64,000 bases of DNA, from the NCBI GenBank assembly GCA_001244265.2, contig CDLV01000004.1:3100001-3164000 (forward strand). Reading direction: 5' to 3'. Source of the stretch: Microbotryum violaceum (taxonomy: Eukaryota). Positions 1-45,202 of this stretch are shown here, piece by piece. The first letter of the stretch is position 1; every line of letters starts with the position of its first letter. Position numbers and translations under genes: made by a program. The notes under the pieces are model-generated. The model did no database searches. It was given only the letters and a program-made list of their open reading frames with translations, and was not told the origin of the DNA.

Positions 1-3000
1 GCGTTGACGAGGAATTGAATAACAGATTCCAGTTCATCCGCAGCCTTGGATGAACTCGGCGAGTCACCAATCACGAATGCGGCAAAGTATTGGGCTGGGC
101 AAGAGACATCGTTGGGTGCAAGCATGTACACTCGAAACTATTCACAGAAACGCCAGCGAATGAGCAACCAATCAAAGCGCCGCACAGACATAGTCACCGA
201 CCTTGGTGCCAGCGACCGGAGGATTCGGTCCCCGAAAGATACCCTCGAGCTCCTGCGTGGTTTCATACACGATTGGCGGGCCAACCATGCCAACGAGCTC
301 GTGACGGAAGATTTTCTGCCCGCGCGGGCGAGCTTCCGCTTCCTTGTCCTTCGAAACCCGTGTTGTCCTGATTACTTGTCGCAGTTTCGTGTCGTCGACG
401 TCGAGGTTAAAGGTCTTCCCATCCGAAAGGATCTTTTGGATGATGCGCTGCATGTGGGGCTCATCTAAGCCGAACCTGGGCTTTTCGAATGTTGCTCGAT
501 GTTGTCTGAGAGACTTAGAATCGTCAGTAGCTTGAAGGAATGACGGATAGATCAGGTCTGAAACTTGCTGAAGTGTGCGCATCGAGACTCCGCCAACAGT
601 TTTTTGCACCACGCGCAACGCCGTGGGAGATGCCAGAGCCAGCGCGTGTTCAAAGTCAAGCAAAGCTTCGTCTCGCACATAGCCTCTCATGTCCTTGCCT
701 TGTGCGTCCCGCCTATGCTTGATCACGGCGACTTTTGCCATACCTTTCAGAATGTTGGCTCCAGCCAGCTCGCCGGAAACTAAACCTTGAGCGAAACGAA
801 GATAGACCTTGCCATCTTTGGTCCCCAAGAGTTTCTCCAGACCTTGGTGTTCCTTGAAAACCTTTGGCATCCAAGCCTCGACGGAAGCCAATCGTTTATT
901 CGTGAACTTGATTGTGGGTCCGACAGCCCGAGGACGATGTAACGCCTGTGAGAAGGCTTTCGTGCGAAGCAGTGCCTTGCATTTGGCGCAAGGCTCCAAT
1001 TTCGTTCCACATTGCGACTCCATTCCGATCCTGGTACAGTCGACACTGTTCACTCGGGGTGCTGAATGATTGTTCACCCACGTCCACTCGTTCGCTTCCA
1101 GATTGTTGATCTTACGGCGTTCAGAACGAGTCAATACACGTTTGCCAATTCTTGGGAACCTTCTCTTGATGAGCTTTAGCCGAGATGGTGCGCCTCCGCC
1201 CCGAGCAGAGCTCTTTGAGAGGTACACCTCTACACGCTTGCCTGTTAGGCCGGGACATGCGGGAGGATCGGCAAGGCTTTTGCCTTGCGACTGGACAGCC
1301 GTTTCGGCGGGCGATCGAACAGAAAAGTAGTGGTCGATCTTGCGCATGTTCGTGCACGGAGGCTTTTTGTTGAGATGCTTCATGAAGCGAGTGACGTCCT
1401 GCCGTGTCTTCATCTTGTGATACGTACGACAGCGACCGCACTGCACCGTCCTGGGATTCTCGATCTTCACGTCCGATTCTGGGCAGAGCTGCTTGACCTT
1501 CGCCCTAAACTCAGCAAATGCTGCGGGGCGAGCCTTCGAGTATTCGACGTCTTTAAGATGCTCCTTGGCTAGTCTGGCTCGTCGTGCTGTGATTGATTCC
1601 CCCGACTTCGGAGTTTCGTCGTCCGTGGTGCAATCATCGTCCGTGGTGCAATCGTCGTCCGTGGTGCAATCATCGCCCGTCTCGGAATCTGAGCGGAAGC
1701 ATACCCCGGACCATGTCTGCTCGTCATTCTCGATCTCGGCCATCTCCTCGACGTCCAACTCGTTCCTGTCTATGCCGGCAATGGGCGCGGGCAAGTCATG
1801 AGTGAGATGTTGAGATTTGGTTGCGAATGTTGCTAGTCGGTGAAACTGGCGAATGCGAGCGATATGAGCGCGACCGGCCAAAAAAGGTGGAACCAAAAGA
1901 AGCTCGGTTTCGACGACATTGATAGCCGCTGGTCCGCACGAGGAGCCGTCAGCCTGTTGAGCCATGCGGCCTTGCTTCGGTTCAGTCTTGAGAATATGCA
2001 GCTCGAGGTAGCCAAACAAGGCCAGTGCCGAGTTGCGAGTAATCTCGTCGATCCGAATATGCGAGAGCGAGTTGAAGAGCGTCCATGTCCTTTGCCCAAC
2101 ATCAACACGTGCCATTGCCCAATGATCGCGGAAGCAGAGCGGGAGATACCAGACCGATTGAGGGCGAGCTCTAACGAAAGATCGAAGGTCGGCGAGAGTT
2201 CGATATGGGACAAGAAAAGATGCGAAAATGTACTTGTCCAAGACTTCACGTTGAGGGGAGTCAGGTTGATGTTTTCTTGAAGCGACCAAAATCGCCATGA
2301 GATCGGATGGGAATGCCCCGTATACTTTGTCGGATGCTGTTGACGCTTGTACACGCGATGAAGCTAGTACGCTTGTGATGGCAACGTCCATCGCGGTTTC
2401 TTCAAGCCACTTGTCCCTAGAAAAAGCCTGAAAAATAATCCCAATCAATCACGCGATCGAACAAATGAACAAATTGGCTGCTTACCGACGAAATCGAGCA
2501 GCGTGCGCAAGGACGCGCTACGCCCGAGGATCATTGCGGGGGTATATTGGTCCTCAACGAGCAGTGACGGCAGCACCTCCAGAGCCTTAACGATGAGAGG
2601 TTGATTTTCGATATCGACACCCAGATAACTTTTCATCCACTCTTGGCTATTGATAACGACCAAACGCATGCGCTCGGCGTAATCTATATGCCGCCAGATC
2701 CTTTCGACACCGAAAGGCAGCCGGTGCCCGGCGATAGCGATAGACCGGTAACCTTGTTTACGTGCCGCAGTGATTGCTTCACGATCCTTGAACTTGTCCC
2801 TCCAAGCGCGGAGCGGCCTAGGAAGAGTATCAAACTCGAGAGGCTCGTCTGTCGACCACGAAAGCTGTATTTGCGTGTCTGGGTTGTCGAAGCGGAAGGT
2901 GAGAAGCTCAGACACCCTAACGTCCAAAAGGGGTGCCATTCGCTCAAACTCATCGTCGAGGAGCTCGATATCCGGATCGTCCAGATACGTTTCGTCGAAG

Positions 3001-3041
3001 CTGGCTGAAGCGAGAACGTAGGATAATGACGATGTTGGCAC
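1..3041 (-). CDS. Ulp1/C48-like protease fused to P-element-like transposase, copy 1 (multi-exon; 3' part runs off the window; start uncertain)
   Basis: ORFs 2445-3041 and 172-2448 are joined by a GT-AG intron. Protease motifs DKWLEE, DHWAMARVD, FNSL, QQADGSSCG; Cys motifs CGRC...H...C and PCAKC; FNLDVDDTK. Colinear with the 29621-35500 gene, including the exon at 1-130 (FRVYMLAPNDVSCPAQYFAAFVIG). Confidence 0.75.
1616..1675. repeat. 18-bp coding tandem repeat x3.3 (DDCTTD)
   Basis: TCRTCGTCCGTGGTGCAA at 1616, 1634 and 1652, partial copy at 1670. Confidence 0.95.
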
Positions 3042-3281
3042 AGACGACGCAACGCGGCGGGAGAGGCAAGAGACGCGCGCAAGGCTCAGACTTTTCGTTC
3101 ATCCAGCCAAGTGGCTATAATTGCAAAATTGTTCAACCAGCCAAGAGGCTATAAAATCGAGCAATTAGAGCCCTTGCTGTTAATTCGGTACAGCCCAGAG
3201 TGTTTCCCACGCGCTCCGCACGTTCTTGAGGGTCGGCAAACTTTGGCGTACCAAGCCGAATGTGGCTGAAATGGGTCCCCG

Positions 3282-3441
3282 ATTTGTCCACTGGCACCTA
3301 CGGGCCTAGACCCCACCCGCACCGGCGCGCCCTGATTTGTCCACCCCCGACTACGCGCCTTCGCGATTTTGGCCCATCTGAGGCCCCAAATTTGTCCAGT
3401 CGGGCACTACGCGCCTCAGGCCGGGCTTTCGGGGGTCCTCC
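3282..3441 (-). repeat. Conserved head motif and three subterminal repeats of P-like element copy 1
   Basis: Minus strand reads GGAGGACCCCCGAAAGCCCGGCCTGAGGCG from 3441, and has three AGGCSCGTAG-N8/9-TGGACAAAT-type units about 54 bp apart (3282, 3335, 3390). The head matches 27105 and 29239. Confidence 0.75.
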
Positions 3442-13432: not shown

Positions 13433-13807
<375 letters not shown>

Positions 13808-14071
13808 ACGGGACCTTGTCGCCAACCCGGTGGGACTTTACAAGCTGCGGTTGCCCAAGTGGTGCACGTGTCACTCAGGTGGCCAGCATTGATCTTTCGG
13901 CACTTGAAGCAGCCCCGGTTGCTCTTGAGGAAAGCACGCTCATGGTCAGTCATCGGCGGTGGTCGGATTTCGGAAGGCAACGGCGGCGGCGTAGACGGTG
14001 AGACGGTAGTGCGCAGCGATTTGATAGTGTGTGACGTGTGCGTAGGGCGGACAATCTTTGCTGAGGCTTGA

Positions 14072-19466
<5,395 letters not shown>

Positions 19467-25153: not shown

Positions 25154-26699
25154 TCACTCAATCAGTTGCTCCATGGCATGCACACCCTCCAACCATCTGT
25201 CAACCGCTGAAGCATGCCATCGCTCCGTTATCCGCCGCTGGAGGCTTCAAGACCTTCGGGATTATTGAGAAATGGCGAGCGTTGACTGTGCAAGTCAACA
25301 TGACTTCTCACTTCCTCTCCAGACATGTTGTTGTTTGCGTTGCCCGGTTGTTCCGTCGACTCCGGAATGTGCAGGTTCTCGTCATAGATACCTCGGCCTC
25401 CGTTTTGAATACTGCCGGACCAGAAGAGTTGGTTTGGTGGATCGCTGCTCTGTGCGAAGCTTGTGGTTATTCCAAACATCTGGATACCATGCCAGGTCCT
25501 TGTTGATATCATCGAGAAATAGGAACTCCAAGAGCCACACATGTCGGGAGAGCTCGATGTTGAGGCCATGCTCGTCTTCCAGATGACGAAAGCGGTGTAG
25601 CCACGCATTGAGAACGGATTTCTTCAGGTCACGCCAGAACCTGTCAATTCGTTGGTTGTGTGGGGACCTGAAGATTGTGGGGCCGCAACATGACTACGAT
25701 CAGCGTTGGAGACAGCAACCTGGGGCCTAGGACGGGTCATGGTGCGGTGACTTACGTTCCCCAAAGGTAAGATCCGCGCCCAAGACCGCGAACGGCCTCC
25801 ATCATTGCAGCCACTTGAACGTTCTCTCCCCCCCTATCTCCTCTGACTCGAGACGGAACTCCGTAGAGTGCAATAGCGTCTTGGAAGACGCTCAGTACCG
25901 TGCTTGCCCAATTATTCGAAGATGCTCTGACCCCAGTAAGGACGCGGGAGTACCCGTCAATGAATCCATGTATGACAATGCCAAACGATATGAGCGCATG
26001 TTGGCCATCGTGATGCCACAGCGCGTTCGGCCCCGCCACATTGTACCTGCGCCTCATCACCGGGTGATTCGCATGTACGTGACGGCGAAGCGGACGCGTG
26101 CGCTGGATCGACGCTCGAAGTGCATCTCGGGGAACGTCGATACCCCGAGCCCGGAGTGCACCTCCCACTAGTATTTCGCCCAAGCTTGTTTCGTGATCGA
26201 GTATCTCCATTACGAGACGATTGAGTTCGGCATCGGGGAGGAGGGTCCGGGCCCTCGTGCGCTCGAAGGGTTGTCGCACTTTTTGATCAACGATGGCCTT
26301 TCGTATGGTCCGTCGAGAGACCCCAAACAGCTTCGCAATTTGTGTGGTACCAAGATTTTGCTCAGGAGCAGCTTGTCGTAAGAGTCCCGGGTCTACTTCA
26401 AGTTGCGGTCGGCCCCGTGCCCCACTTCGCACAGACGAGACCGGCGTGAACGTGGCTGAGACAGTCATGTCGGTGGCCGCGCTGATTTGTTCTGAAAGAG
26501 ATGATAGTAAAGAGTCGAAATGCCCAAGGTCAGTCGCCTCTTCTTGAGGATCGAAAGCACCCACTTGGATCGCTTGTTGGAACTGCGCCTCGGTTTGACG
26601 CGAGGCGCTCGTGGCACTCGAAAAGGCGATGCCGATCACCATCACAGTTCGCAAGGGCGTACAGGGCTTTCTGCACGTTTGCTGACCAGGTTGACGCAA
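25154..26699 (-). CDS. IS3/IS481-type integrase-core transposase with HTH (start uncertain)
   Basis: RGRPQL; HTH TQIAKLFGVSRRTI; NALWHHDGQH, IHGFIDGYSR, PSRVRGDRGGEN; after an intron (about 25668-25755) SPHNQRIDRFWRDL...WNNHKLR. Confidence 0.85.
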
Positions 26700-27104
26700 G
26701 TGAATGCAAGTCGATGGCCTTTCCGCGCTATTCCATGGGATAGCATCCGTCGGATCAGATGCGATGTCAGCTGTCAGGTGTTTACGAGGGAGTCCTGCCG
26801 AGCTCGAAGTTGCTCCAGCTTGGCAGTAGCTTATGTAAGCTCAGATACCTGGTTAATAGCCACTAGTAGTACGATCAAACAACTAGTACTTGAGGTCAAG
26901 CATTGGGCGATCATGTTTCTGTGGCTTTCAAAGTTGAATAACGATTCTGCTGCTGCATACCAAGACTCTTGGCCCCGACAAATAATTCTCTGGAACGAGC
27001 CCGTAGCTCTCTTCGCTTTTCGGCTTTTACTGCAAGAGTTTGACGCTGAGGACTTTAGCGCGCGCGACTTCAACACTCCCAGCCGTAAGCCGTGCCCGCA
27101 CGCA

Positions 27105-29238
27105 GGAGGACCCCCGAAAGCCCAGCCAGAGGCGGCCCGCAAATTTGGACATTTTTGGTTCAAAATGGGTCGAGGCTCACCTCATTTATGGACATTTTCC
27201 TCCCTCCGGTCAAACTTTGAAGCGCAGACCAGGGTAGCGGGAGGCTGGAGGCGCGGGGCATATATAGCCGGCCCAGCTGCGCGCGGGTAACAGTCGCGCT
27301 GTTTGCGATTTGAGCGCGTTGGTAAGTGCTGCATTTGCGATTAATCATGAGATCCTATTCGAGTCCATTTCAGTTTGACCCGCGCGACACGCCACCGACC
27401 GCGGTCGTGGCACCCAATCACTGGCACTCTATACTCTACAAAGGTGTCTACAAAGGTGTTCAAAATGCCTGTGATCATTAATATCAAACCGAGCTTTGCT
27501 CTCACCTCCGAGGAATTTGCAATCTTGAGCCCTGTTGCCGACCTACGCCTCGTTGACCTACTCGCGTACGACCTACCTGCGCCCGACGCTTCTCTCCGAC
27601 TTGCTCTATCGAAAGATGTCCCTCGACATTTTGACGCGCTGCCACGCCCCTTGAAGCAATCTATCGGAAAGTTTTCCGATCAAAGCTTTCTATCCTTGGC
27701 TTATCTCGATGGCTATCGATCTATCGCATTCGCCGTATCGGGGTCGTCGGTCAATGCGCCTTCCTCTTAATGCCTCGGCGTTATGGGCCCATCTCGACAA
27801 GGCAGAAAAAAATCGATATATCATCCACAACATTCAAGAATGGATTCCTCGATTAGCTAACGCCAACGCGATTCGGGAGCGTGAGCTTGCGAGTGCTCGT
27901 CATCACCTCACTCGCATACGTTGGACAGCTGTCGACCGCGTCAATCTTCGAGGTCGATCTACACGCCTCCAAGACTTTCTACAGATCCTCAGTGAGTTTG
28001 CATCCTCTGGGCTCATTCATGAGTCGATCTTGGATACTGATGTGGGTAGAATTTTGCGTGTGTCTGCAGGCTCCGCCTGGTACTCCGAAACACATCCGAG
28101 TCGACCGTTCGCCAAGGTGTCCCTCCGAACGTGAACGAGGCTGGTCTGAACCAAGTCCTCGATCGTCTCCGTCTTGTCGGATCGGAGCCATTACCGTGTA
28201 TTATGCGACGCCAGGAAGGCGACGCAAGGAAGGCAACGCAAGGAAGGCAACGCAAGGAAGGTGACGCGAGGAAGGCGACGCAAGGAAGGCGACGCGAGGA
28301 AGGCGACGCGAGGAAGGCGACGCGCTTCTTTCGGTGACTGCGCTTGACATTGACCAGGAAGCTCCGATGTACGTAGCTTGGTGTTTGAGAGCAACAAACG
28401 ATCACTAACAACCGTATATTGAAGCCTCAGCGATGCTGTTGATGCTGGCTTCGATCAAGCCGATGCAGAAGAAGAAGATCGACAGTTTCAAACGATCCTG
28501 CCGAAGCATGCCATGAGCATGAGCAATCCGTGAGTGAACACAATTATCGGTTGATCGATGCATTTACCGATACAGACCCGTGTTCCCAACCAGTGGGAAG
28601 CGCCCCATACCCGCGTGATCTTCTAGAGAAGGGGGCCCTCTACTCTGTCCCCACACTCGACTTGGACAGCTTGCTCGCTCGACGACGTGCACACCAATGC
28701 CGACACCTCGAGAAGATCAAGTTTAAAGGTGGCGCGCAGAACGTAGCGTCAGATCAACCTTTTGCCCAAGACCGAACCGAGCACCGCGGCAACGTGCATT
28801 CTGCCGCACTTCGACGGATAGTCGAGACAATGGGAATGGACAGGTATCGACAGTCTGTGGGGAACGAGAGGAACCTTCGCTTCAGGGGCAAATATCCGGG
28901 AGAAGACGTTGCACGAGCAAGCGACAACTGCGATCATCACCGAGGGACGATCTCACGTTAGTCGCTGATTCGTGATGTATCATGACCCAAGCTGGGGCGT
29001 GCCTTTTCTTGCGCTCACTGCCCTTGCTTGTTTTGCACCAGGAGGCCGTTCAGACGAAGACGAAGGGCGTTAACAATGATGAAGAATGAAGGTCAGCCTG
29101 GCTCATGCTCGTATTGCGGTAAGCTTTGTCAGAGCTTGGCCCATCAAGCGTGGCAGTGGATCGCGGCTGGGCGGGTGTGGAGCAGAGCGCTGGCGGCGCT
29201 CTTGGTGTGCGCGCGCGCGACCTTTCCGGCCCGCGCGC
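27105..29238 (+). mobile_element. Internally deleted, non-autonomous P-like element, copy 2
   Basis: Head motif at 27105. N-terminal homology EEFAILSPVADLRLVDLLAYD..DASLRLALSKDVP; C-terminal homology LDSLLARRRAHQCRHL...VHSAAL. Protease and transposase core are absent. Confidence 0.7.
28214..28325. repeat. 14-bp minisatellite x8
   Basis: GGAAGGCGACGCGA units; variants are mostly CGA>CAA. Confidence 0.95.
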
Positions 29239-29362
29239 GGAGGACCCCGAAAGCCCAGCCGGAGGCGCTTTTTTTTTTATTTTTATACATTTTGAGGACC
29301 CAAAATCCTGAAAATCGTCGAGGCGCATCGCAAAAAATTGACATTTAGATTTTGACATTTTC
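29239..29362 (+). repeat. Conserved head motif and subterminal repeats of P-like element copy 3
   Basis: GGAGGACCCCGAAAGCCCAGCCGGAGGCG, then CGAGGCGCAT...TTGACATTT and TTTTGACATTTT. Confidence 0.75.
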
Positions 29363-29620
29363 CCGTGAGTCGGCCCAATTTTGGCCTACCCTGAGCAGCC
29401 TACGGCATCGCTTTGGGCCCGTTTGCCTTCGCTTCGAAACGCGCTTCGCGATGCTCGCGCTTGAACAAGTCACTAGCCATTTTCGCTAATCACTTTAGTT
29501 CAGTGGCTGTTAGAGAATATTAGGGATTAGATACCCCTCTCGAGTAAGATAAAAATGACGGGGCCCCTGAGGTTCCGTTCCGCTTCACTTCGTTCTGACA
29601 CTGGAGCATAGCACGACGAA

Positions 29621-32600
29621 ATGATTCCATGCCTGTTTCTTGACGAAGATCAGGACTACTATTTGCACGACGATGACTTTGATCGATTATCGCCGCTCAC
29701 CAACATGACGGTTGCCGCGCTCCTCGCCTTCGATGTCGCTCCCGCCGACGCGTCTCTTCACATCGAGTTGTCCAAAGACGAGCCCACCCAGTATTCGAAC
29801 TTACCCTACCCGACTCTTCAGACCAGAGACGCGTTTCTCGCTACCGATGCTCTGATCAATGCACGCAAGAAAGGATATCGATCTTTGGCCGTTGGGTCGA
29901 CGTGTTTGCCGCTCGGCGCCGATCGGCTATGGTCAGAGTACGACCGAGCAAAAGACGTTCAAAGCTGGGCGCTGCGAGCTCAACGATGGATGGACAAAAT
30001 TATCGTTATCAACGAAATTGACCGCAACCGTATCGCTGTCGCACGTCGCATACTGAACGGATTGCAATGGCAAGAGCAAGACGGGCTTCTACCATTGCCT
30101 TTTCTTGCAAGTGGAACGAGTTTGGTTTATCTCCTGAGATTATTAAGTCAGTACACCAATCCTTCAGCTGGCCACTCGTATTCATCTCGTATCTGAGGCA
30201 ACTTGCTTATTCGCGTCTCTACCCAGGTCATGATTGGCTCGGTGAAGCCGCGGTGAACTTGTCAATTGAAAGCGTCCTTCGAGCTGGACGAGTGCAGAAT
30301 CCCGATTTCGAAACATCGTATGGACTTATACCCTCCACCGTCATCTCCTTGGTAATGGCTCGCCCTCCCAACTCGGATCCTCATTCGGTCTTCAAAGCCT
30401 GCTTTTTCGGCCCGCCAAACCAGTATCGGAATCTCATCGAGCTAGGCGATTGCATGCGCAACACGCCGACGTCAAAGTCAATCTGGTTTCTACCCCTCTG
30501 CTCCGACAGCCATTGGGTCCTGGCCCGCATCAACATGCACAAGCGGACATGGTCTGTGATCAACTCACTCTCCGCCACTCCGATCACCGCGGCTACTCGG
30601 ACGGCCGTCCTTACGCTATTCAAATTCCTGAAGCTGGACATCAAAAACGAGTTCCCTCATGCTCCTAAGGCGGAACAACAGGAAGACAGCTACTCGTGCG
30701 GGCCGGCTACGATCAATGCAGTGGAGACGGAGGTGCTCGGGATTGGGTCATTCAACGCAGCGCGCGCTCACATGTCACGGCTCCGTCAATTCTGTCGTTT
30801 ATCCTCTCTGGTTGGTGCTGTCGAGGATCCCAAAGAACTCGAATCCATCGTTGCCACGGGCGCAAAATCAAAGGCAAAGTATGGGAGGGGATCCGCTGCC
30901 GGAACACTGAGCAGCAAGAGCACGTCGGCAGAGTCCGGCAAGGCTGCGACAATCAAGCCAACAAATCAACGAGTCGCATCATCCTCAAAAAACCCGCCAA
31001 CTTCTCGACTTCAAACGACCTTCACCAAGGCATCGAAGCCGACGAAAGCTCGAGAGCTCATCCCGAGGAGCATACGATGTGGGCTCGCGACCATCCGCCT
31101 CTTTTCAGGAGGTTTGCTGAAAAAGTCGAAGATCGTTGCCCGGGATCGAATGTCGACGTCAACAATCCAAAGTACGTGCGGTGTGGGCGTTGTTATGTCC
31201 TGGTTCCAATGGCGGCCTTGCTGTGCAAGGCACGATTTCAATTACATCTCGGCAATAAGAAGTGTGTCAACCTCCAACCCATCAGCAATTTCTTCAGACC
31301 TATCGCCTCTGGCTCAACTGCTACCAGCCCCTCGCTAGGACCGTGCCCCGGCCTTACGTCTGAAACGGCGATGCATTATCTTTCATCAACTGCGGCGCAG
31401 GGTGCCGGGGTCCCTCCTCGACGGACGCTTCGTTTGCGCCTCTATCCCAAAATTGGTAAACGACCAATGACGGAGCTCGAGAGGAAGGAGGTGGACAAAT
31501 TGGAAGCAAATGAATGGAAGTGGCGCCACGATCATCGAGCACCGCGCATCATCAGTGTGAAATGTCGCAAGTATAGCGCTCGAGATTCGATCAACAAGGA
31601 CGGACCAAGCTTACCGTGTGAAGAATGCGCGAGGCTTCCTAAGGATTCATCCTGTCGAGCAGCTCTTCGACGTCAATATGCTGCTGGCGCAACTCGCAAA
31701 TACACCAACAAGAAATATGTCGCGGGCGATACACTTCTCTCGGCCATCTACCGGCGACATCATGGACTAGAAGAGATCCTGGATGACAACGGTCAAGGGA
31801 CCGTGTATCTACGATTCGCGCAAGGTGTGGCCTCAGGAGAATTTGACGGAGCGAACATCTTGGAGGGATTGGTGAAAGCGGCTACGGTCAAGCACGATCG
31901 GATGGTCAAGGGCAAATCAATGCAAGGCTTTGTGCGGTCCGAAGCGCTGCGTGACTTCGAGCAAGCCATGGCGCTGGCGTCTCCGATGGCTCTGAGAGTG
32001 CTGCAGGCTACAATCGGCGCATCCACAAGCCGAAAACTGCAGTGAGTACCGTCATTCTTTCGTTCCTTCAATTCAACCTCATACTGAATGATCGAGGTGC
32101 TTGCAGAATGGACCGAGCGACATCAGGCAGGATGCGCCTCGGCCTCGACAAGTCCAACATGGATCGTGTCTGCGCGAAACTCGAAGCAGACGGCCTAACG
32201 TTCAATTTGCACGTAGACGACACGAAGTGTCGATCCAGGATGCGAACCACTCCATACTACTCAGAAGACCTCAGTTTAGAGCGCGAACTACGTACGAAGG
32301 GCATATTCCGCCACGAGCTGATCGGATCAATTGCTCCGCCACGCATCTACGAAACTCCGAGTGAACTCCCTGATATGTTCAGCGGACCTGACCCCCGGTT
32401 GCTGGAACCAAAGTGAGTGGCAATGATGCTTTTAAGTTTGTACTTCATTTCCATGAGGCTTTAACATGTGTCGCCTCTTCATTCAGATCCGAGCTTACAT
32501 GATAGCACCGAACGATGTTGGCTCCCCAGCACAGGTGTTTGCCGCTTTTGTGATCGGCGAAACTACGAACGCGGAGGACGCGACCGAACAATTACATTCA

Positions 32601-35500
32601 GTGATACAAGAATTAATAAAACGTTGCGTCGCACACCTTCTGGTATCCATCTCCGCAGATGGTGCGGCAAGCGAGGGTGTGCTGCAACGTAATGTTGCCG
32701 TCCTTCTGCGCGATCAGGGTGGCGCTGTTGCTCAAACCGGATCAAGGAACGCGTCATCATACACCCTCCCCTCCCCAGATCCGGGCGAAGTGTTTCCTGA
32801 AATCATTATATCGACCGTCAACGTCGCGGGAACGCCGATAGTCTTTTGTCGGGACGAAAAACACCTGGCCAAATATCTGAGGAACGCTATCGACTCTGGA
32901 GCAAGATTGCTGCTCGGTGGTCTCGGATGCATTGCCTACCAGGATATGCTCACCATCCTGGGCGGACTGGAGTCGCGTCGTTCTCTGTCTCGTCGTGATG
33001 TGGTCGGGCGTGATCGTCAAGACGACAATGCAACACATCGGGCATTCTCCAAGGCGACGCTCGAACTCGTAACCGAACTCGCTGAAGACAAAAAACTCGA
33101 CCCCGATGCGGTCGTATATCTCTTCTTATGTGGCGAGTTACACGATGCCATCCAGAACCGGTCGCTTCAGCCCCTTGAACGTATCAGGATGTTGCTCGTT
33201 GTCAGATATACGTTCGAGGCGTGGTATGACTTTGTCCGAAGTCGCCCCGGATCTAGCTCTCACTCGTTCCTCGCCAAAGAAACGCTTGATGGGGTCAGGA
33301 AGATGGTTGACTCAACGATTGCTCTCGTCCGCAACTACCGAGATTTTTGGCCGAAGGAATCGTTCATTCCCTGGCGGCATGGCACAGAATTGGTGGAGCA
33401 CTTCTTCGGGGGTATACGCCAGATTGTAAAGGAGTTCGATGCTCTAGAGTTCTTGCAGGTGCGTTCTTCATAAATCAATCTAATCTATACAGTAGTTAAC
33501 CCGGCTAGAATCCGACAGGCAACTGGCAAAGTCACTGCACTCTTGGAGCTCATGAGGAAGTTTAAGACCGAGGCGGCGGGATCACGTCAAGGCTACCATC
33601 ATACCTACAACGACCTCGACGATCTTGACCTTGTTGCGATGCGAACGTACCCCAGTGATGGCGACATCTCTCTCACCAGTTTTGCAGCGGCAAATACTGC
33701 GCGTGAACTGCTTTCAGGTTTACGCATGTGGGAGCCTGTGCAACGCATCGCGTCCAACAGACGCAACCAAGGTCCGCAACCTGACATACTCGTCGAGGGC
33801 GTACTCGCCCATGGCACAACAGTTCAAGGTAGTTCAGAACGACTTGGCCTACAAGTGATGCGTATCTGACACGGGATACCATGCCCACTTGACGTAGATC
33901 TTGGAAACCATCATCCTACCAAGGAAGATCAAAGGTCTGCTCCGCACCGAATTGCTGGATTCTGCTCTTGATGGCATGCGGCGTAGCACGTGCCAAGGTG
34001 TTGTGAAACTGGACCCAAACGAGCGGGAAGCTGTCGACCGTGCAATTCGATCGCTTGCAGCTCTGGACTTTGACGTTGAGGCAGCCTTGTGAGTGGACAC
34101 TTCTCTGTGCCACGTGCGCTGAAGCGTTATTCTAACTTTTAATCCGGACCTCATATGGTTCTCCTTTCTCATTGGCCAGACTTGACGTGCAAATCGCTTA
34201 CGACGAAGCTGTCAGACAAGCTGAGGAACGCTACGTACTCGAGACCATTGAGAAGGCAAACAGCTCATTACGTCCAATCGTGCGTCTACCAAGCTTGACT
34301 AGCGTAATTTCGATCTGAACTCATGCATCTTCGGTACTATAGAGCCTACACACTTGAAACTTCCGCCTCTTGTTGATGCTTGCGATACCAGTTTCTCGCT
34401 GAACTGGGTCAGCTTGATTGCCCATCGAGCTGCTCATAAGTGTAGCCACCTCAGAGCTGTTCTACTCAAAGGGAGGCCAATGGAATTGAGCGACACAAGT
34501 CGCGGAAAGGCAGGCTTAGAGATTAGCAATACAGAGCAAGGACGCAGTGCAGTACATTCACGCGTCTTGAAAGGGTTGGTGCAGCCCATGGGACCATCTT
34601 GCTGCGAAGACATAACGGGCACGACGAGGAGCTTTTGCTGGACTGGAGGTGGCCAGGTGGCCCAAGCGCTCACAACAAACGAGATTCAGAAGAACGCCTA
34701 TATTGAGGATGGCCGCATTCAAGTGAGCTGTTGCTGAATTTAGGAACGAAGGCAACTGGATCTAATGTTTTGCCGGTCCTATACTTTTAGGAAAAGCTCC
34801 CTGAGAGAGACAAGCAGTATGGAGCGCTAGCACAACGCTATCCTCATTTTGGATCGCTTGACGGAGCTGTAACCGCTGCCACACCATTGGAGATTGGATC
34901 TCTAATCTGCTTTGCCTCAAGTGTGGCATGCATTCACTCAGCTGCGATCAAACTGTTTATGGAGAAGAAGCGCTGTCTATCGGAGTTAGTACGCGCGTTG
35001 TTTTGAGTGGCAGTTGAGGAAGTTCTCGTTTGACACAAGTCTTGTGTCCTACAGTGCGACACATCTACAGCAGAGTGACAACAAACCACTGCAACCAAGA
35101 CACGCTCGCCTCGTTGGTTCTACTCTCAAATGTCGTCGTACAGGAGCTTCGCCTCATCAAGAAAACATGTTATTCCACACACCTCATTGATGGCACTACG
35201 CCGTTCCGCATGATTGATGGTCGACAGGTCATCGAGTCATTAGGCCCGTCAACGACTACATATCGTTCAACCACGGACCTTACCTCATGTTACCCGGACG
35301 AGCGCCTAATCAGCACGAGCGCACATGCCGAGCAAAGCTTTGCCGCCCTTCGGAGCGTGCCCGGCCTGCGAGATGCCGCCGGCAGAACCTCTACAAGTCG
35401 CACAAATGCCACTGCGGAAACAAGGAGCTCAACTTCAGCAAAAAGGAAGTCTGACAACGAAGCAGCGAGCCAGCCAGCAAAGCAAGGAAGTCTTGTTTGA
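29621..35500 (+). CDS. Ulp1/C48-like protease fused to P-element/THAP9-like transposase, copy 3 (full length, multi-exon, at least two frameshifts)
   Basis: HDWLGE, SHWVLARIN, INSL, QQEDSYSCG; CGRC..H..C; LHVDDTK, ISADGA, DEKHLAKYLRN, DRQDDNATHRAFS, TELVEHFFGGIRQ. Frame changes near 31050 and 32390. Confidence 0.8.
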
Positions 35501-35711
35501 AGCCTGGAGCCACGCGCAACACCAGCCGAAGCGACGCGCGCCGCAAGCCACTTTCGATAGGCCGCGGCGCGCCCGCAAACGCTCGGAACGCGTTTTCGAG
35601 GACTTTTGAGCGATTTTTGGAGCATGTCGAACACATTTTGATAATATTTCCGAGGCGCATGCGAAATTTTGACATTTTGGGGCCAAAATAGGGTAAAAAA
35701 CAATGACAAAA

Positions 35712-37931
35712 CCAGTGGGAACCCGTTAAATTAACGGGAGGATGTAATTCAAAAAATAGCAGGATAATCGAACAGTCTACATGATATCAGCGCAGAGGTT
35801 AAGAAAACACAATACGAAATACAGCAAAGAAACAAAATCCATTCATCTTACATTCATTGCCGAAACAGCCTGCATGTCGCTTGTTGCCGGACTTGGCTTC
35901 AAACACTCGTGCAATGAGATCCGGACGGTTGCATGCTTTATCGGCCCCAGTGCAGCCTTGATTTCCGGTGAGTCGGGGTAATACGTCATCGTGATGAGCA
36001 GCGGAGGCTTTCCATGTTTGACAACGCACGCCATCGCATCCTGGTATCGCTGCGTAATGTCGCGATTTGGTTCGGGGCCAAGCCGTTGATGCCGTGGGTC
36101 GTGGTGAGGCGTAGGTTCTCTTGATGTAACCGGATGTGTTGAGTCGATCGGTCTCGACTTGGGAGGATATCCGTAAATCACAAACTCCAGGATGGGACGT
36201 TGGGTGCAATGCGGGATTGAGAAGTACTCGTCACGTTTGGCAAGTAGTGCGCAAAGAATGGTGAACGCGAGACTCGCCACCTCGACCCCTTTACTTGACC
36301 TTCGTCCTAGGTGTTCAAAAGTTCAATGTCAGTCTGTGCTTACGTCTCAACAGAAAGGAACATATGAGAAAGAGCGGAAGACGTTTACGTTCACCATCAC
36401 CATTCTCTTCGTCCCCTTCCTCGCCGTCTTCATCCTCATCGTCGCGGTCTTCGTCCTCCTCTTCGCCTCCGTCATCAAGACTGAGACCCGCAAGTACCTC
36501 GCGCGGTTGGACACCATTGTCGATCTGCTCTCGGTTTCTGGTGATTGGCAGCCCAGCTTGGCGAAACCCGCAAAGAGAAATGTTGGGGTGGAAGCCATCT
36601 TCCCCTGCAGGAAATAGTAGTGGCTACCGGAGAGGCAACGCAGACGGATGGAGCGAGCTGATGACTTGGTACTTGGGGCCGACCATCGGGACATCGATCA
36701 CCGTGCACCTGGAGAATACGGTCTTGAGGTCCACGATCTCCCATGTTGGTGTCGGAATCGCAGATAAGCATCGCCATTTCCGTGCTTGACGTAGGAAGGT
36801 TGTGGGTACGTCGGTCCCGGGGTGGCGGGAGGCAGAGGCGCAGGATCCACTCTTTGGCCGTATCCCAACCTGCGCGAGCTTTGGCCGATGCGAACTCCCT
36901 CACAAAGCGATTGCCGCTGCGCAGAATGGACTCGAGCTTGGTCAAAGTAGATCGTTGCATGCGACTGTCTGCGCCGTCGGGTCCAAGTCGAGTGTCGGTG
37001 GCCTCGGCCGGGTCGATCAGCCATGTTTGAGCAAAGGTTGGGCGTTGAGTCACGGCAGGGGTCAGGGCGCCGAGTCGATGGTAGAGGCGACCAAACACGC
37101 GAAACACGGGGGTCCTAGCGTGCCCACTTGAGTTTGGTCCCAGATGGCAGCGAGCGAAGTAAACGACAACGCGTTGTTGTACGACCGGGCATTCTCGCGG
37201 AATGCAACCGCTTCTGTGTGGGTGGGTAGAACAGTTCAGCATGTGGGTCTACTGAAGACGAACGTTGTTGGACGGAGCAACTGACCGCTATCCGAGCCTT
37301 GAAGAAGCTGCCGATACTCGAGATTGGGCTGGGGAGGGGGAGATAGCCGCACCTTGCCCTGCGAGCAGCACGCGCCGAAGTGTCTGGTCGACTTGGACCT
37401 TTCGCACTCCCAGTGCCGAGCCTTGCAGTGGGTGCACACGGCCGTCTGCGGGCCGAGGTCGTCGCGGATCGAAACGTGGGGCTTGAGGGGTTTGAGCGCG
37501 ATTCGAGCCCGGCGCACTCGCCTTTGCGGAGGTGGTGGTGGTGGGGCGAGCCCAGCGTCGAGTTGGCCATCGCGCTGACGACGCTGTCCGTTCTGCACAG
37601 CTGCACGGCGGGCTCGTATACGTGTCGCAATGCCAAGATCGGTTGACTTGTTGTCATGACGCGCGGGGGCTGATTCTTTTGATCGGAGCGGGACGAAGAG
37701 GAGGGTCGAGCCGCGGGGCGCCCAGCAGCGGGCGCTCGAGCTGGCCCATGGTACGGCGCTATCCTCGCGCCCAAGACTTGGCGAGGTTGCGATGGCCCTC
37801 CCTGGCGACGTTGGGACCGGGGCATAGTAGCGAAGGTTTGTTCTTGAATGAGTGTCACTAAAATTGGATGAGAGTGAGAGGGAGAAAGGAAAGGTTCGAG
37901 GGAGTGGCGCAGGATTATTTAAGTGGTTTGA
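35712..37931 (-). mobile_element. Internally deleted Helitron with intact termini
   Basis: 5' TCAAACC at 37931; 3' hairpin CCCGTTAA-T-TTAACGGG then CTGG ending at 35712; inserted between A and T. Encodes CTHCKARHW..CCSQGKV, GRLYHRLG..FAQ and HGKPPLLITMT..PEI..RPDLIARVF, then jumps to the 3' end. Confidence 0.88.
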
Positions 37932-37934
37932 TTT

Positions 37935-38011
37935 GTTGTTCAGCCCCTAATGCCGCTGGTCGAATGCCATACGGGCAAATTGGTTGTTCAGCCCCTAATG
38001 CCGCTGGTCGA
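37935..38011. repeat. 29-bp direct repeat x2
   Basis: GTTGTTCAGCCCCTAATGCCGCTGGTCGA at 37935 and 37983. Confidence 0.9.
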
Positions 38012-38333
38012 CTGCCGGAATGACACTCCACCGCCGGCGCACCGCATCACGTGACAAACGCCAGCCCTCGTCTCGCACGTCAGGCAGAGCTCTGCTGTAG
38101 AAGCAATATCATGCAAAGCCACGCGCTTGCGGTTCATTAAATGCAATATGAGTGGAAGCATTGTTTTATGTGAGCGAAAAAAAGAAGGAAAATACTGGGA
38201 GCGCTGTAGCTTCGTTGGAACGGCGCGGAAAATACAAAAGTCACCACAGGGCTTGGACATGACTTCTGATCGGAACCCCAACACCACAGGCAGTTGCGGC
38301 AGACACAACAGTATGCTGGTGCATCCACCACAG

Positions 38334-38357
38334 GCGGCCCTCCGGGCCGCAACCTAG
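38334..38357 (+). mobile_element. Helitron-like 3' terminus
   Basis: Hairpin GCGGCCC-TCC-GGGCCGC, then AAC-CTAG followed by T. The 5' TC end was not located. Confidence 0.5.
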
Positions 38358-38522
38358 TTAAAAACAGCGATTTTAGGTACATTCCTTAACTCACACTTTT
38401 TTTTTACTAGCTACTAGTTAGGGTAAAGTCCTCACGTAAACACTCCTCCCTATCTTAGTCGCGCGGAAATACTGTGCATCTCGAGCAAACGACGCCCAGT
38501 GAGGGGTTTACCTTCAAGGTAG

Positions 38523-41500
38523 ATGGCGCCAGTCGCACTCATCATGTCGACAGGAGAAATGAGCCAACTGCTCCAAAACAAAGGGGGCCGACCACCCATC
38601 GCGTTGCAGGAACAAAGCTCCCCAGAGGGATACGCATCGGAAGTTGACTCGAAAGTGGATGAGGATGAGGACAGTCTGCAAGTCTTGGCAGCTTTGGTCC
38701 CGGTTCCCTCAAAGTCCTCGATATCTAGCCCCTCCGCAGTCTCGGGGCTTTTAATCTCTCCAAAGAGCCGTTCGAGAGACTCCGACGAGGATTCGGCAGA
38801 CGAGGGTTACTACGGAGTCGACGACGACAATTCGGACGAGAAATCAATTGACAACATCTTCTCGGCACTACTCCTGGCTCGGAACGACAAGAAGATCCTT
38901 GACCGGCACACGTACGAGCCCTCTCGACAGGACAAAGAGTTATTGAACACGACGCGCGAGGCAATTTTCTCAAACATGATCCTCACGACTGCAGAGCACA
39001 ACGAGCTCCGTCTCAGGCCGCTTGTTCTCAATTGTCGCAAGCCGAGGTCCGAATGGGAATTTGTACGCAAACTTCCTGTCCTGGAGCTCCCAAAGTTCAT
39101 GGCTACAGAGGTATGTTGAAGCTACATGCTGCGCTGCGTTTTGTTTCGTCCTGTGAACGACTTAACTTTCATTGGTGCGATCTATTAACAGAAGCATGAC
39201 TGGGCTCCACGCAAATATGAACGCTGTCTCGCTGTCGTCGAGCGACCTTACGATGACGCGCCCTCGTCTACTCATCATCAACATCCGTCGGAGGTGGCAG
39301 TGGGGATCGAATGGCGTCCGGAAGTGCCTATCACCCTTCGAGAAGCTTGGAGCCAACCCGGCGAAGGTCGACCTGTTGCGGAGGTTCTACGGATTACACA
39401 TCGTTGCTCGGGGGCCTGTAAAAGAGTTCGGGTCAAGGATGGCAAACTTGGGTACAAGAAACGAGACAATGACAAGGACCCTGGGAAAACATGCTCTACT
39501 CAACTCAAGGTGATCATCCCGGATAGGAAATCAAAGGAGCTTGAGTTGGGTGGCTGATAAGACTCTCTGTTACCTTCTTCGTCCCTTGTGTAGATCCTCG
39601 TTCAGGCCGACGATCTTTCATCGGCGCTGGTGTACACCCTCGGCCGCCGGAAGGACGCCAACCACCGCCGAACGTCCGACGTCCAGCCCCTTTCATTCGT
39701 GCGTTGGCGCATCAGGAAGTCTTTCGGCAGGCCAACACGCCCACGCTTGCATTTCAAAGTGAGTGTGTGCTCCAAGTTTGCAAGAAGTTAGTTTTCACTT
39801 CTCAAGACTGACCATCAGTTCCTTTCTCGATAATGGACTCGATCATTTCACAGATATGAACCAGCGGATGTCGTTCTGGGAGAAACAGAACGAGATCATT
39901 CTCCCGCAGTACAGGAAAGTCGGCGCAAAGCAGCTGCGCAATATGTTCAGGGCAAAAGGTCGACAGAACGCGCAGCATGGATCCTCCTTGTACTCGCTAG
40001 CCGCGCATGGCTGAGCTGAGACCGTTCACCCTTCAAAATGCAACGGAGCCCGAGACACGTGGAGTGGCCTAGTGAGTGATCACGATCTAAGCTGCTTGCC
40101 GATCTGATGAGCTAACAAGCGACGGAGGTATTTACCCTTGTCAGCTTTCAACCTTTTAATGAGAAAACGAAGCAGCCGTTGATCTGCGTCCTTGCCTCCC
40201 TCCACTCCATCGACGTGTTAATTTCCTTCGCCACAGTTGGGAACGATTCAGGCGATTGGTCGCGGTTTGTTGGACTTGACTCAAGCTGGCGATACCTGAA
40301 CGAGAACCGCGCCCCCCTCACCGCCCTCGTCGCGACTAACTTGAAAGACAAACTTGCGCTAGGTGAGAGCCCGGGAAGCACTTGAAAGGAAGGTCCGGAC
40401 GAGTACAAAGACTCATTTCATCGCTTATGTATTGTCTTCTTCAGGTCCTATGCTTCTCTCCAGTGATGTGAAGGCAGATACTCTCGCCATCTACTTGGAC
40501 ACGGTAAAGAGGCTGGTCGAGGAGCACGCCGCGATCCTTGTAAGGAGTGCGTTGTAAGATGGGTTGACCAGGGTGTGCTGCGCGTCACGACAGTTTTGAG
40601 AGGAGTCGCTCACGCCCTTCTGTACCGTCGACGATTTGCATGCGTACTTCAGAAGCTCGTGAGAATGGGCCCAATCTACCCGGCTCGTCCCCCAGGTTGC
40701 CAAATCTTCTCCAAAATGCCGAATTCATCTTGGAAAATCAGTGGCAGCCACCGAATTTCATGATCGACAAATGTCGGACTGAGCTCAACGCCTTGACACT
40801 CTGTAAGCGCCGCTGCTTGCTAGGGCTACTATATGAGATGTGCAGACTGCTCTCACGATTTTGAATTCCTGATGATCGTCGTCTTCTGCATCTACGTTAC
40901 TATAGGGAAAGAAAAGCACAACCTCAACTTTCACATACGCCTTTGCCAATTCCACGTGCTTCAGGCCATTATTCGGTGGTCGAGTGACAGGAATGACGGC
41001 GAAAGGGGCAACACCGTCAAGCCTTCTCGGATTGCTCGCAAGACGTTGATCAACATTTTGTACGAATTTCGATCCATCATCCAGCGCTTTCGTTTTATAC
41101 GCACCGAGCATGAAACAGATGCCGAGGCGACAGCTCGGCGCTCGGCTGAGTTCGAAGAGAAGAAGCGGGCGTTCTTTGAAAAATCGGACGCATGGATCGA
41201 CAAAGAGTTCCGAAGTCGTCGCAAGCCAGCAGCAAACAAATCAAACGTCACCAAGAAGTCGGAACTGGGTTGCAACAGCCGAGAAGAAGAACAATTACAA
41301 GCAAAGAAGGATAACTTTCGGGCGTATTTTAATGTCAACTGGTTCGTACAAGAGTGGATCGGTGAGTCTTACTTATTCCTTCTTTACGTGTTCTCTCACA
41401 ATTTTTTTGGCTCACGCATTTCCACAATTCTGAAGAAACATACACAGATGATGGTTTACCCCTTGGCGCTTCACGGGAAACCATCAACACCAACAACGTT

Positions 41501-44061: not shown

Positions 44062-45202
44062 GATATTGAAGCTCCTGCATGCTCTATTGTCCTATGGAGC
44101 TCTGCTCTTCTCCTCCTCATGTCCCTTGTTGTTTCGGAATGACTCACCCCTGATCTCATCACCCGGCCATTGTTTCGTGCGCAGGCTACAGCAGTGACGA
44201 CGCGGAAGAAGTCTCACAACATCACAGTAAGTTCCAGGACAGAAAAAGCAACTTCTTGGCTTTGCTCGTGCCCTTGATTCCAGATTGTCACTCAATGATC
44301 CTTCCTCTCTTCGTGTCTGCGCCGCTCTAGTTTCCACCCCTGTGTCTACGAGATCCGTAACCTTCGAGGGGTCGAGTGTTGTGGGAAGTTAGTAAAGGGT
44401 CAGCGGTCCAGAGGGACTTGTGGCATTGGGAAGTTGGCGCGCGCGTGGCACGGCGCCGGATGGAGGCAGATGGCGATGTGGCGTATTGATTGGACTCAGA
44501 GGTGGCTCGCACGCCGATACTATCTAAGGCTCTGGTCTCGTTCACTCTCACTATCTCACAATAGGTTAGTTGTAATACATTTAACACACACTCGATATCT
44601 ATCTCGCCCATTTGCCTGCTACAAGTTGATTGACCTTGGCGATACTCTATCTCACAATAGGTCATCTATCAACGCCGTGTAGCTACAGCGAATCTTCATT
44701 CATTCATTGGTACTCCAAGTCCAAATCCACAACAGGTTATGAGTTCGACGACTACCACCAATGTATCGAATGAAGGGGACGTCAAGATCACCAAGCTCGG
44801 TAAAGATAACTACGAGCTGTGGTCGATCCAAGTCGACGCGTTCCTCGAAGGTCGTGGCTACAGCAGTGTACTTCAACACGGAGCCGACCGACCATCGATT
44901 ATGGATGTGCAAGCATGGAAGACTCTCCATGGCATCGACCCAAGTCTAGAGGAGGGCAAGGTCCCGACTCTAATCACCAAGTGGGATCGTAGGCGCGATC
45001 ATCATCTCGTGCCTCGACGATTCGAATCTCAAGATGGTCAAGAGCAAGTCGCTCTCAGCCAAAAACATCTGGGAGAAGTTGAAACAACACCACGAAGGGA
45101 ACGCCGATCCGTTCAAGATTCGCACGCTACTCTACGAGATTTCGAATGCGTCGTACGATGAGGACACCAACCTCGGCGAGTTTCTCCAGGGCATCACGGA
45201 CA

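Follow-up and report, generated by a model that had tools for sequence, protein, structure and literature searches.

A probable P-superfamily transposon of Microbotryum violaceum with an Ulp1-type protease domain ahead of its transposase core

We are highly confident that positions 29241-35711 of the window, the 64,000-nucleotide stretch of Microbotryum violaceum DNA analysed here, hold one damaged copy of a P-superfamily element, a multicopy cut-and-paste DNA transposon 6.5 kb long. Its gene lies on the plus strand in ten exons, from an ATG at 29621 to a stop at 35498-35500. The majority consensus of 13 copies is a single open frame of 1747 aa that runs through an N-domain, an Ulp1/C48 protease, two Cys/His clusters, a helix-turn-helix (HTH) region, a DDE core and a long C-terminus. 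One polypeptide very probably carries both protease and transposase, and the reading as a whole, a P-superfamily transposon with a single spliced frame, terminal inverted repeats (TIRs) and target-site duplications (TSDs), appears likely. The first-pass annotation had proposed a single spliced gene with protease and transposase motifs, and all of these motifs were found in place, on the plus strand.

The left TIR (29241..29268, plus strand; about 28 bp, starting AGG) lies 380 nt upstream of the start given earlier, and this boundary is common to 15 of 20 fetched subfamily-A loci. In complete copies the motif returns in inverted orientation at the right end, giving TIRs of about 28-30 bp. Subterminal repeats follow at 29262..29370 (plus strand) as units of the form GAGGCGCA...TTTGACATTT, which may be bound by the zinc clusters described below; the complete copy L040 has three such units at its left end and one direct unit near its right end. 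The right subterminal region (35501..35711, plus strand) is truncated about 55 bp short of the right TIR. Beyond 35711, 12 other fetched loci run on into that TIR, whereas the window copy, L033 and L043 run into Helitron DNA. The intruder is a minus-strand Helitron fragment (35712..38430) with a Rep exon (Pfam Helitron_like_N, E 3.5e-6, just below cut-off) and a 3' CTRR plus hairpin at 35712-35745; the insertion hot spot also occurs within it, unoccupied, at 37738-37761. Because its right TIR was lost to the Helitron, the window copy is unable to move in cis. A TIR just past the window end was considered as the lost right end and rejected, being the left end of another copy.

Evidence for mobility comes from the other copies. 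With the window copy's right end lost, TSDs were counted elsewhere: an 8-bp GC-rich duplication was exact in 14 of 23 end pairs, had one mismatch in 3 and was absent in 6. At one target site TSD-AG-TSD occurs in 35 of 64 variants and TSD-ACT-TSD in 1 of 64; both would fit end remnants of a staggered cut, but the first form equals a 10-bp tandem duplication. Genome-wide, the TIR pattern gave 391 matches against 0 for the control, and the core matched 22 times at 90-100% identity. The multicopy mobile family suspected from the sequence is thus borne out, with dozens of copies bearing TIRs and TSDs scattered over unrelated sites instead of a single syntenic locus. That this is a domesticated host gene in single copy, or that a protease gene and a transposase are neighbours by chance, has a negligible probability and is refuted for this genome. 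Databases do label the relatives as hypothetical or Ulp-protease proteins; against this stand the dispersed copies and a protease exon found about 2.26 kb upstream of the core exon in copy after copy. A KDZ/Zisupton element, Helitron cargo and a TIR-less element were also dropped after the TIR/TSD ends and the fold comparison.

Two related elements share the window. An internally deleted relative of subfamily C (27107..29236, plus strand, left TIR at 27107; about 55% protein identity) has its right part split by the element about 190 bp short of its end, and both its ends match L060, L061, L063 and L070 at 93-97% DNA identity. The 5' half of a subfamily-B copy of the same architecture (1..3439, minus strand; 64% core protein identity; Pfam C48 E 0.0035, below cut-off) runs off the window start.

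Exon 1 (29621..30146, plus strand; aa 1-175) encodes the N-domain, whose last helix is part of the protease fold. A novel N-terminal domain had been announced at about 190 aa; its exon measures 175 aa. It has no Pfam match and contains a confident alpha/beta region in the model of the relative P0008. An archaeal methyltransferase family came up as best ESM Atlas match at 0.89, below 0.9 and with low recognition, a lead only. Exon 2 (30227..32041, plus strand; aa 176-780) holds the protease, a linker, both Cys/His clusters and the HTH start with no intron between protease and clusters, and at the paralog in 175-2448 this region is one open frame of 758 aa. Exon 3 (32107..32412, plus strand; aa 781-883) contributes the first catalytic Asp, and exon 4 (32487..33458, plus strand; aa 884-1207) the second Asp, the D-x2-H-x2-K-x2-RN motif, the helical insertion domain, and E-x2-E with the catalytic Glu. 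Exons 5-10 (33519-33828, 33898-34088, 34180-34279, 34345-34722, 34791-34988 and 35055-35500; 33519..35500, plus strand) encode the end of the core and the long C-terminal region. Eight of the nine introns proposed begin with GT and end in AG in 12-13 of 13 copies; the ninth donor is at 34989. None of the 13 copies is intact in the assembly. The window copy has four 1-bp indels (near 31060 in exon 2, 32391 in exon 3, and 33931 and 34913 in exons 5-10), possibly read errors, and no in-frame stop; copy L037 is open from the ATG to aa 1232, spanning the protease and the catalytic Glu. Selection within the family was estimated from the 13 copies: omega was 0.82 for singletons and 0.74 for shared changes (Fisher p 0.67), and the protease showed a nominal singleton deficit (31 N and 25 S; p 0.006), a result from one of six tests run with no correction.

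The protease could instead be a passenger or a separate gene within the TIRs, with no part in the transposition or silencing of its own element, which we think unlikely. Contigs from run X3, guessed to be RNA, have GT..AG joints at four introns of the exon 5-10 region, all downstream of the core start, and no sequencing-run contig was spliced across protease and transposase exons; contigs of X1 and X13 were unspliced and cover in X2 was patchy. A passenger would also fit the presence of Ulp1 domains in other transposable elements of this genome, such as the neighbour at 38424-44100, and the absence of the protease from the gene models of 39 rust and 12 Rhizophagus relatives. What speaks against it is that protease and both clusters share one exon, that protease-bearing forms occur in two separate clades, and that Microbotryomycetes, Tremellomycetes and Agaricomycetes all retain the protease's catalytic residues despite an overall identity of 20-30%. 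These contigs gave no sign of the two as separate genes, and the 13-copy consensus supplies one frame.

The protease itself (30235..30840, plus strand) is of the CE clan, with Trp 30235, His 30511, Asn 30562, Gln 30679 and Cys 30697, all intact in 13 of 13 copies. Pfam Peptidase_C48 (PF02902) matched its exon (E 7e-6, 26.4 bits against a cut-off of 20.7) and was the only Pfam match among 11 element ORFs of the window; in long relatives C48 is above cut-off in 18 of 29 and reaches E<=0.01 in 22 of 29. The H-D/N-Q-C set is complete in 43 of 57 aligned rows and occurs in the second clade as well. A profile match to yeast Ulp1 (E 5e-17) agrees with structure models, which are of relatives of the window copy: Foldseek reached Ulp1 at E 1.8e-7, and fold scores were highest for NEDP1 (Z 18.9), SENP3 (18.5), SENP5 (17.9) and Ulp1 (16.8). 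In a viral fold library the only matches were giant-virus and pox Ulp-type proteases. The likeness to this group (Z 17-19, rmsd 2.7-3.7) extends to the W...HW...D/N...Q...C signature; the Microbotryum copies differ in having Asn for the triad Asp, as ASFV pS273R also does, and the main clade adds an unassigned upstream domain of about 140 aa. An Ulp1-type protease in the same frame, as first suggested, is therefore supported by Pfam, fold, triad and oxyanion Gln. The label deSUMOylase is not, as NEDP1, SENP3 and SENP5 score within 1 Z unit of one another and the fold does not single out SUMO as substrate.

Viral CE-clan enzymes suggest another role, in which the protease would cut the 1750-aa precursor to free or activate the transposase. 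The Microbotryum His-Asn-Cys triad has a precedent in ASFV pS273R (PMC9866604), a polyprotein-processing protease (PMC10318531). A Gly-Gly soon after the first Cys of cluster 2 is present in 45 of 45 protease-bearing but 12 of 34 protease-free proteins. Yet the fold is far nearer to SENP, NEDP1 and Ulp1 than to pS273R (Z 10.2), I7L (10.7) or adenain (8.5), and most of the family has Asp and not Asn (39 versus 9 of 57 rows). The Gly-Gly, moreover, is part of a folded cluster and is found in proteins with no protease as well, and common descent confounds the comparison; of 56 linkers between protease and clusters, only 21 contain one. Self-processing is improbable.

Assignment of the core to the P superfamily rests on fold, catalytic residues and ends. 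On the window copy the catalytic sites are the VDDTK Asp (32216/32219, motif 32216-32221), the SADG Asp (32658), D-x2-H (32853-32864) and the Glu of ELVEHFFGG (33396). Among 57 rows the two Asp are kept in 54-55 and 55, the D and H of D-x2-H, a P hallmark, in 56 and 57, and the Glu column is at least 90% conserved. An HTH region of approximate limits (31697..32176, plus strand), crossing intron 2, precedes the core; its basis is the model of relative P0002 (63% identical in the core), whose alignment with P transposase begins at residue 41 of the model and residue 138 of P. The same model matched the P transposase structure 6P5A at Z 28.2 (rmsd 3.3, 394 of 442 residues), followed by Tn5 (10.9), ISCth4 (10.2), RAG1 (9.4-9.7), Hermes (9.3) and Transib (9.0). 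Foldseek gave E 1e-14 for P transposase against 3e-5 for RAG1, and a second model agrees. KDZ and Plavaka were without a solved structure in the fold-comparison lists. Pfam families for KDZ, Plavaka/CMC, hAT, MULE and Transib/RAG matched none of the 71 core proteins or long relatives; more than one of the 71 was matched by P-type Pfam families only, mostly below cut-off. On the HTH region, Tnp_P_element exceeded its cut-off in relative P0051, and PF12017 did so in 1 of 29 long relatives and stayed below it in 2 more. No profile search of PDB sequences recovered P transposase. The P-type transposase read from the motifs does find a structural counterpart.

In Drosophila P, the catalytic residues are D230, D303 and E531, and GTP is bound by D528, K385, K400, V401, S409, F443, D444 and N447; the ends carry a 5'-CA terminal dinucleotide and cleavage is staggered, 17 nt inside the ends. 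The fungal termini start AGG, not 5'-CA (the Pdre TIR starts CAT, PMC10983969). Together with the missing THAP finger, a structural-alignment identity to P transposase of 12-14% and an invariant D-R/K-Q-D-D in the insertion domain, this might point to a sister superfamily distinct from P, with different chemistry and a remodelled or lost GTP site. We hold this to be very unlikely. HTH, split RNase H and insertion domain superpose on P residues 138-564, and the E-x2-E spacing equals that of P's D528-x2-E531. A D-x2-Q/L-N motif is conserved alongside the E-x2-E. The 8-bp TSD and the approximately 30-bp TIR are as described for P elements (PMC7776569), and Repbase already classes fungal elements as P. 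Drosophila P transposase (6P5A/6PE2) and THAP9/Pdre share with the element the HTH, the split RNase H with helical insertion domain, D-D-E, D-x2-H, TSD and TIR lengths, internal repeats near the ends, a spliced gene and deleted non-autonomous relatives. The fungal protein differs in size (about 1750 aa versus an 87-kDa protein) and in having an N-domain, a CE protease and two Cys/His clusters.

No scanned protein matched Pfam THAP, and a THAP-like pattern occurred in 0 of 162, as had been noted. By the account in PMC7776569, THAP is animal-restricted and absent from fungi, so its absence bars a THAP9-type branch, not the P superfamily. The idea that the protease replaced THAP is not supported. 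Cluster 1 (31182..31265, plus strand; C/H-x2-C-x17-H-x3-5-C), a candidate zinc finger, keeps its ligand columns in 49-50 of 57 rows, and cluster 2 (31344..31628, plus strand; C...W...C-x17-C-x2-C), a candidate zinc module, its Cys columns in 49-51. Proteins matched by a cluster-2 HMM numbered 30 among 39 from rusts and 9 among 12 from Rhizophagus, all protease-free. As these relatives keep cluster 2, the zinc clusters and not the protease are judged from sequence to take THAP's place, and cluster 2 may hold a structural THAP remnant. The cluster-1 HMM matched 0 of the 51, although a C-x-C-G...H pattern was seen in 7 of 8 N-termini viewed. ESM Atlas likened the cluster region to zf-BED at 0.76-0.77 (region best 0.88), under 0.9 and of low recognition, again a lead only.

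A search with the core exon retrieved 582 representatives at 50% clustering. The lineage spans anther smuts, Tremellomycetes, mushrooms, rusts and Rhizophagus, and its Puccinia/Melampsora branch, which shares the core motifs, is large. When animal P relatives were sought by profile, 5 proteins came back; judged by their names, none was a new one from outside fungi. Protease-bearing forms fall into two separate clades as read from a FastTree tree, with no clade test behind the split, and the design is common among mushroom-forming fungi. The missing protease in 51 of 51 rust and Rhizophagus models means either that it is dispensable for such transposases or that the models are incomplete. Table 1 of PMC5751038 gives 17 Repbase P entries for fungi, belonging to Pucciniales and Allomyces; that survey tallied 11 fungal P copies in which a transposase domain was present and termed them single occurrences. 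Since the rust branch probably overlaps these Repbase entries, we regard the lineage as a variant within the P superfamily, not a new superfamily. We found no description of the protease-fused architecture in the literature searched; the newness proposed for the family is tempered by the Repbase entries and the rust branch.

From P biology, the zinc clusters would do THAP's job by binding the subterminal repeats, the HTH would grip the TIR, and the D-D-E core would cut with a stagger inside the ends and insert at an offset of 8 bp; it would also mobilise in trans those deleted relatives that share the TIR. The protease would be a working isopeptidase that acts on SUMO, NEDD8 or ubiquitin. Brought by the transposase to its own ends, it would strip this modifier either from proteins of silencing or repair or from the transposase. 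We consider the case for this tethered role evenly balanced; given the branches without it, the protease would be helpful but not essential. A bolder version is doubtful: a large overlooked THAP-free fungal P branch would have gained an N-terminal CE protease twice, the protease in cis would be a transposase-tethered SUMO/NEDD8 isopeptidase required to escape silencing or complete repair, and the insertion domain may have altered or lost the GTP cofactor that defines P chemistry.

Capture of Ulp1 or OTU domains by Ginger, Mutator and Helitron elements is on record (PMC2836005), which limits the surprise. Ulp1-bearing Mutator (Kaonashi-type) and Ginger1 elements similarly carry a C48 protease fused to or alongside a DDE transposase, but of other superfamilies, and Ginger1 has its protease at the C-terminus, the element described here at the N-terminus. 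P elements were held to be almost absent from mushroom-forming fungi, yet the protease-fused design is common there; the lineage was missed by the survey's Pfam models (PMC5751038), yet is abundant in a single genome. It offers a view of how a P transposase can do without THAP, and its natural pairs with and without protease on one transposase scaffold make it possible to test directly why transposons bear Ulp1 proteases, a question of long standing.

The core of this element is P-like as modelled. The AlphaFold model of the relative P0002, which is 63% identical over the core (model from a 78-row alignment, pLDDT 74), matched the Drosophila P transposase in Foldseek with an E-value of 1e-14, the next hit being RAG1 at 3e-5. 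Structural comparison against 48,161 chains placed P first, with Z 28.2 and an rmsd of 3.3 over 394/442 residues (P residues 138-564), and Tn5 as the runner-up (Z 10.9). A second model, of P0008, found P at Z 20.4, its protease being matched separately. Sequence profiles fail to reach the P transposase among PDB sequences, and a Pfam scan of 71 core proteins gave TNP-like_RNaseH_N in six (best E 0.008) and Tnp_P_element in three (best 1e-4), with no further family matched by more than one. The Drosophila P element is described as having 31-bp terminal inverted repeats (TIRs), target site duplications (TSDs) of 8 bp, the residues D230/D303/E531, an insertion domain that binds GTP and a staggered cut of 17 nt (PMC7776569). 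The fungal family retains an E-x2-E spaced like D528-x2-E531 of P, as well as a D-x2-Q/L-N motif.

All motifs named in the first-pass annotation were recovered from the sequence of the window, on the + strand and in the order it gave. The protease residues are His 30511, Asn 30562, Gln 30679 and Cys 30697, the Cys/His clusters occupy 31182-31265 and 31344-31628, the acidic core residues are Asp 32216/32219, Asp 32658 and Glu 33396, D-x2-H lies at 32853 and the stop codon at 35498-35500. Among the 11 element ORFs of the window scanned with Pfam, the protease ORF matched Peptidase_C48 above its cut-off and the other ten had no match. The gene structure was examined in 13 near-full copies, namely the window copy together with 12 subfamily-A loci from the 20 fetched, which are 96-98% identical. 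GT and AG are present in 12-13 of the 13 at eight of nine proposed introns, the donor of the ninth being 34989; the majority reading is a single open frame of 1747 aa; copy L037 reads without interruption from the start codon as far as aa 1232, spanning the protease and the catalytic Glu; and exon 2 holds the protease together with both clusters. Thus, at the DNA level, a single polypeptide comprising protease and transposase is well supported. Contigs of run X3, which is guessed to be RNA and bears another organism code, have GT..AG joints at exactly four predicted introns (33459-33518, 34089-34179, 34280-34344 and 34723-34790). None of the 15 joints displayed, to which 11 undisplayed ones add, spans any of introns 1-3, and these contigs contain no spliced record that joins the protease to the core.

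The top profile match of the protease is yeast Ulp1 (E 5e-17), and by fold, in a relative's model, NEDP1 (Z 18.9), SENP3 (18.5) and SENP5 (17.9) tie, with Ulp1 at 16.8. Enzymes of the C48 family are described as targeting SUMO, NEDD8 or ubiquitin (PMC10318531). A 57-row alignment, which includes near-identical Microbotryum models, shows H-D-Q-C in 36 rows and H-N-Q-C in 7, the region being partial or altered in 10 and absent in 4. The Microbotryum proteases carry Asn at the triad position, the same residue as reported for ASFV pS273R (PMC9866604). Such deep conservation speaks for an active enzyme, whose function we infer.

The first-pass annotation saw this protease as standing in place of THAP, a position that turned out to be occupied by the clusters. 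Fungi are said to be without THAP (PMC7776569); Pfam THAP matched none of the scanned proteins, and a THAP-like pattern occurred in 0/162. A rust relative used as query retrieved 69 proteins, of which, by our own grouping, 39 are from rusts and 12 from Rhizophagus. HMMs built from the family detected neither protease nor N-domain in any of these 51 gene models, where upstream exons may be missed, and detected cluster 2 in 30/39 rust and 9/12 Rhizophagus models; Pfam C48 was found in none of 28 scanned proteins from the rust/Rhizophagus search. In a length-selected count, 60 of 61 proteins with a core start at or after residue 700 have the protease. Since the protease-free relatives keep cluster 2, the predicted zinc clusters are, judged from gene models, the constant N-terminal module in THAP's position and the protease is an add-on.

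The family search yielded 582 representatives at E 0.001. The nearest named proteins, from Microbotryum silenes-dioicae and M. lychnidis-dioicae, are at most 96% identical over the matched part, and named members include Athelia, Mycena, Coprinopsis, Steccherinum, Artomyces, Coniophora, Naganishia and Phenoliferia. Database models P0114, P0148 and P0214 of the family are labelled as, or joined to, methionyl-tRNA ligase, and are probably gene-prediction run-ons. A FastTree phylogeny of the core was built from the 101 of 227 proteins that matched the core over a long stretch and also hit cluster 2, and rooted arbitrarily on a Rhizophagus protein. In the main clade (n=67, support 0.84) N-domain plus protease are the rule; a rust clade (n=20, 1.0) is without protease, as are the Rhizophagus groups. 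A second mushroom clade (n=7, 1.0), adjoining two Rhizophagus proteins (0.94), has a protease that retains H, D, Q and C (C48 above cut-off in 7/10 scanned) and no N-domain. This clade could represent an independent protease capture; two captures and one capture followed by losses would both fit. Proteins P0207-P0212, P0219-P0221, P0226 and P0227 are of the same type, with the protease at the extreme N-terminus.

Copies and ends identify the family as a transposon. The core exon matches the 33-Mb, 20-contig assembly at 74 places, the first 22 at 90-100% identity and later groups near 63% and 50-55%. Fifteen of the 20 fetched subfamily-A loci have a common left boundary, and 12 run beyond 35711 to a terminus that repeats the left end in inverse orientation. 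The resulting TIR of about 28-30 bp, starting AGG, is common to all three subfamilies, and its pattern occurs 391 times genome-wide (control, 0). At 23 paired ends, an 8-bp duplication is exact in 14, has one mismatch in 3 and is missing in 6; the 8-mers adjoining 85 termini are roughly palindromic and G+C-rich (69% versus a background of 54%). Short repeats recur internal to both ends, and elements of 1.2-1.5 kb with identical types of ends are present. Fragments of the N-domain exon have at least 150 genome matches, far more than the core exon, many of them short pieces of 55-78% identity with stops; these fragments are probably non-autonomous derivatives. The majority of the listed core matches fall on C2 and C1, the largest of the TE-rich contigs, which might correspond to mating-type regions without recombination. 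A 14-bp tandem array at 28193-28332 sits within a deleted subfamily-C relative, full copies being without it in the corresponding stretch.

The window copy keeps all catalytic residues and has zero in-frame stops, but carries four 1-bp indels, and in this assembly not one of the 13 aligned copies is intact. Across the copies, indels at 31060, 32391 and 33412 lie within stretches of C or G and are shared by 5, 7 and 5 of the 13, respectively, in sets that disagree with the grouping given by a stop codon common to one sub-lineage, which suggests that they may be long-read errors or slippage. From 35712, Helitron DNA stands where the final ~55 bp would be, and the rest of the window holds no right TIR, so irrespective of the indels this copy is immobile in cis. 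A TIR just past the window end was considered as the lost right TIR and rejected, being the terminus of another copy. Helitron DNA adjoins the same base of the right subterminal region (35711/35712) in three loci, the window copy, L033 and L043; in L043 the Helitron is followed by the right TIR and an exact TSD.

Mapping of termini put 8 of 85, from six loci (L044, L045, L050, L054, L066 and L100), three subfamilies and both orientations, at or beside a single 8-bp Helitron site, empty at 37738-37761. Its 64 genome occurrences, classed by length, comprise 23 plain sites, 35 TSD-AG-TSD or near variants, 1 TSD-ACT-TSD, 4 with a 12-bp duplication and 1 other. AG, and A plus CT, are terminal bases of the element; such remnants would be expected under a staggered cut inside the ends, at which they faintly hint. 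Because the common form is identical to a 10-bp tandem duplication and was amplified by the Helitron, only the ACT form, also found beside L045, might be a specific trace of excision.

Remains of retroelements and DNA transposons crowd the window. A further DNA transposon near the element cluster (25755-26840, −) has an HTH and integrase-core gene (Pfam rva_4, E 2e-35), and a head-to-head retroelement pair at 13433-14518 forms an inverted repeat (99%, ~370 bp) that contains 97-bp repeats. At 38424-44100 (+), a second spliced transposon-like gene, which looks Mutator-type, carries near 41950 a motif resembling SWIM (C-x-C...C-x-H) and, at its C-terminus, a region resembling Ulp1 (HW, Q-x-D...CG; Pfam C48 E 0.014, below cut-off).

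Fungal P elements in Repbase are given as 17 entries, from Pucciniales and Allomyces, and a survey counted 11 fungal copies (PMC5751038). Word searches of the text found no mention of Ulp1 in two Microbotryum genome papers (PMC10502011, PMC4469406) or of P element in the first, and the text consulted of a 2025 study of transposons that carry TET in fungi names neither (PMC12730594). No description of a P-Ulp1 fusion was found in the searchable literature, a scope exclusive of Repbase Reports and subscription papers; supplementary files to PMC5751038 and PMC10502011 could matter for novelty. Ulp1 and OTU domains, with suggested roles, are described in Ginger1, Mutator and Helitron elements (PMC2836005), and protease capture is already a known theme. 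The element is a genuine multicopy transposon of the P superfamily in fungi; it has no THAP and a fused CE protease, and its architecture and breadth would be of specialist interest.
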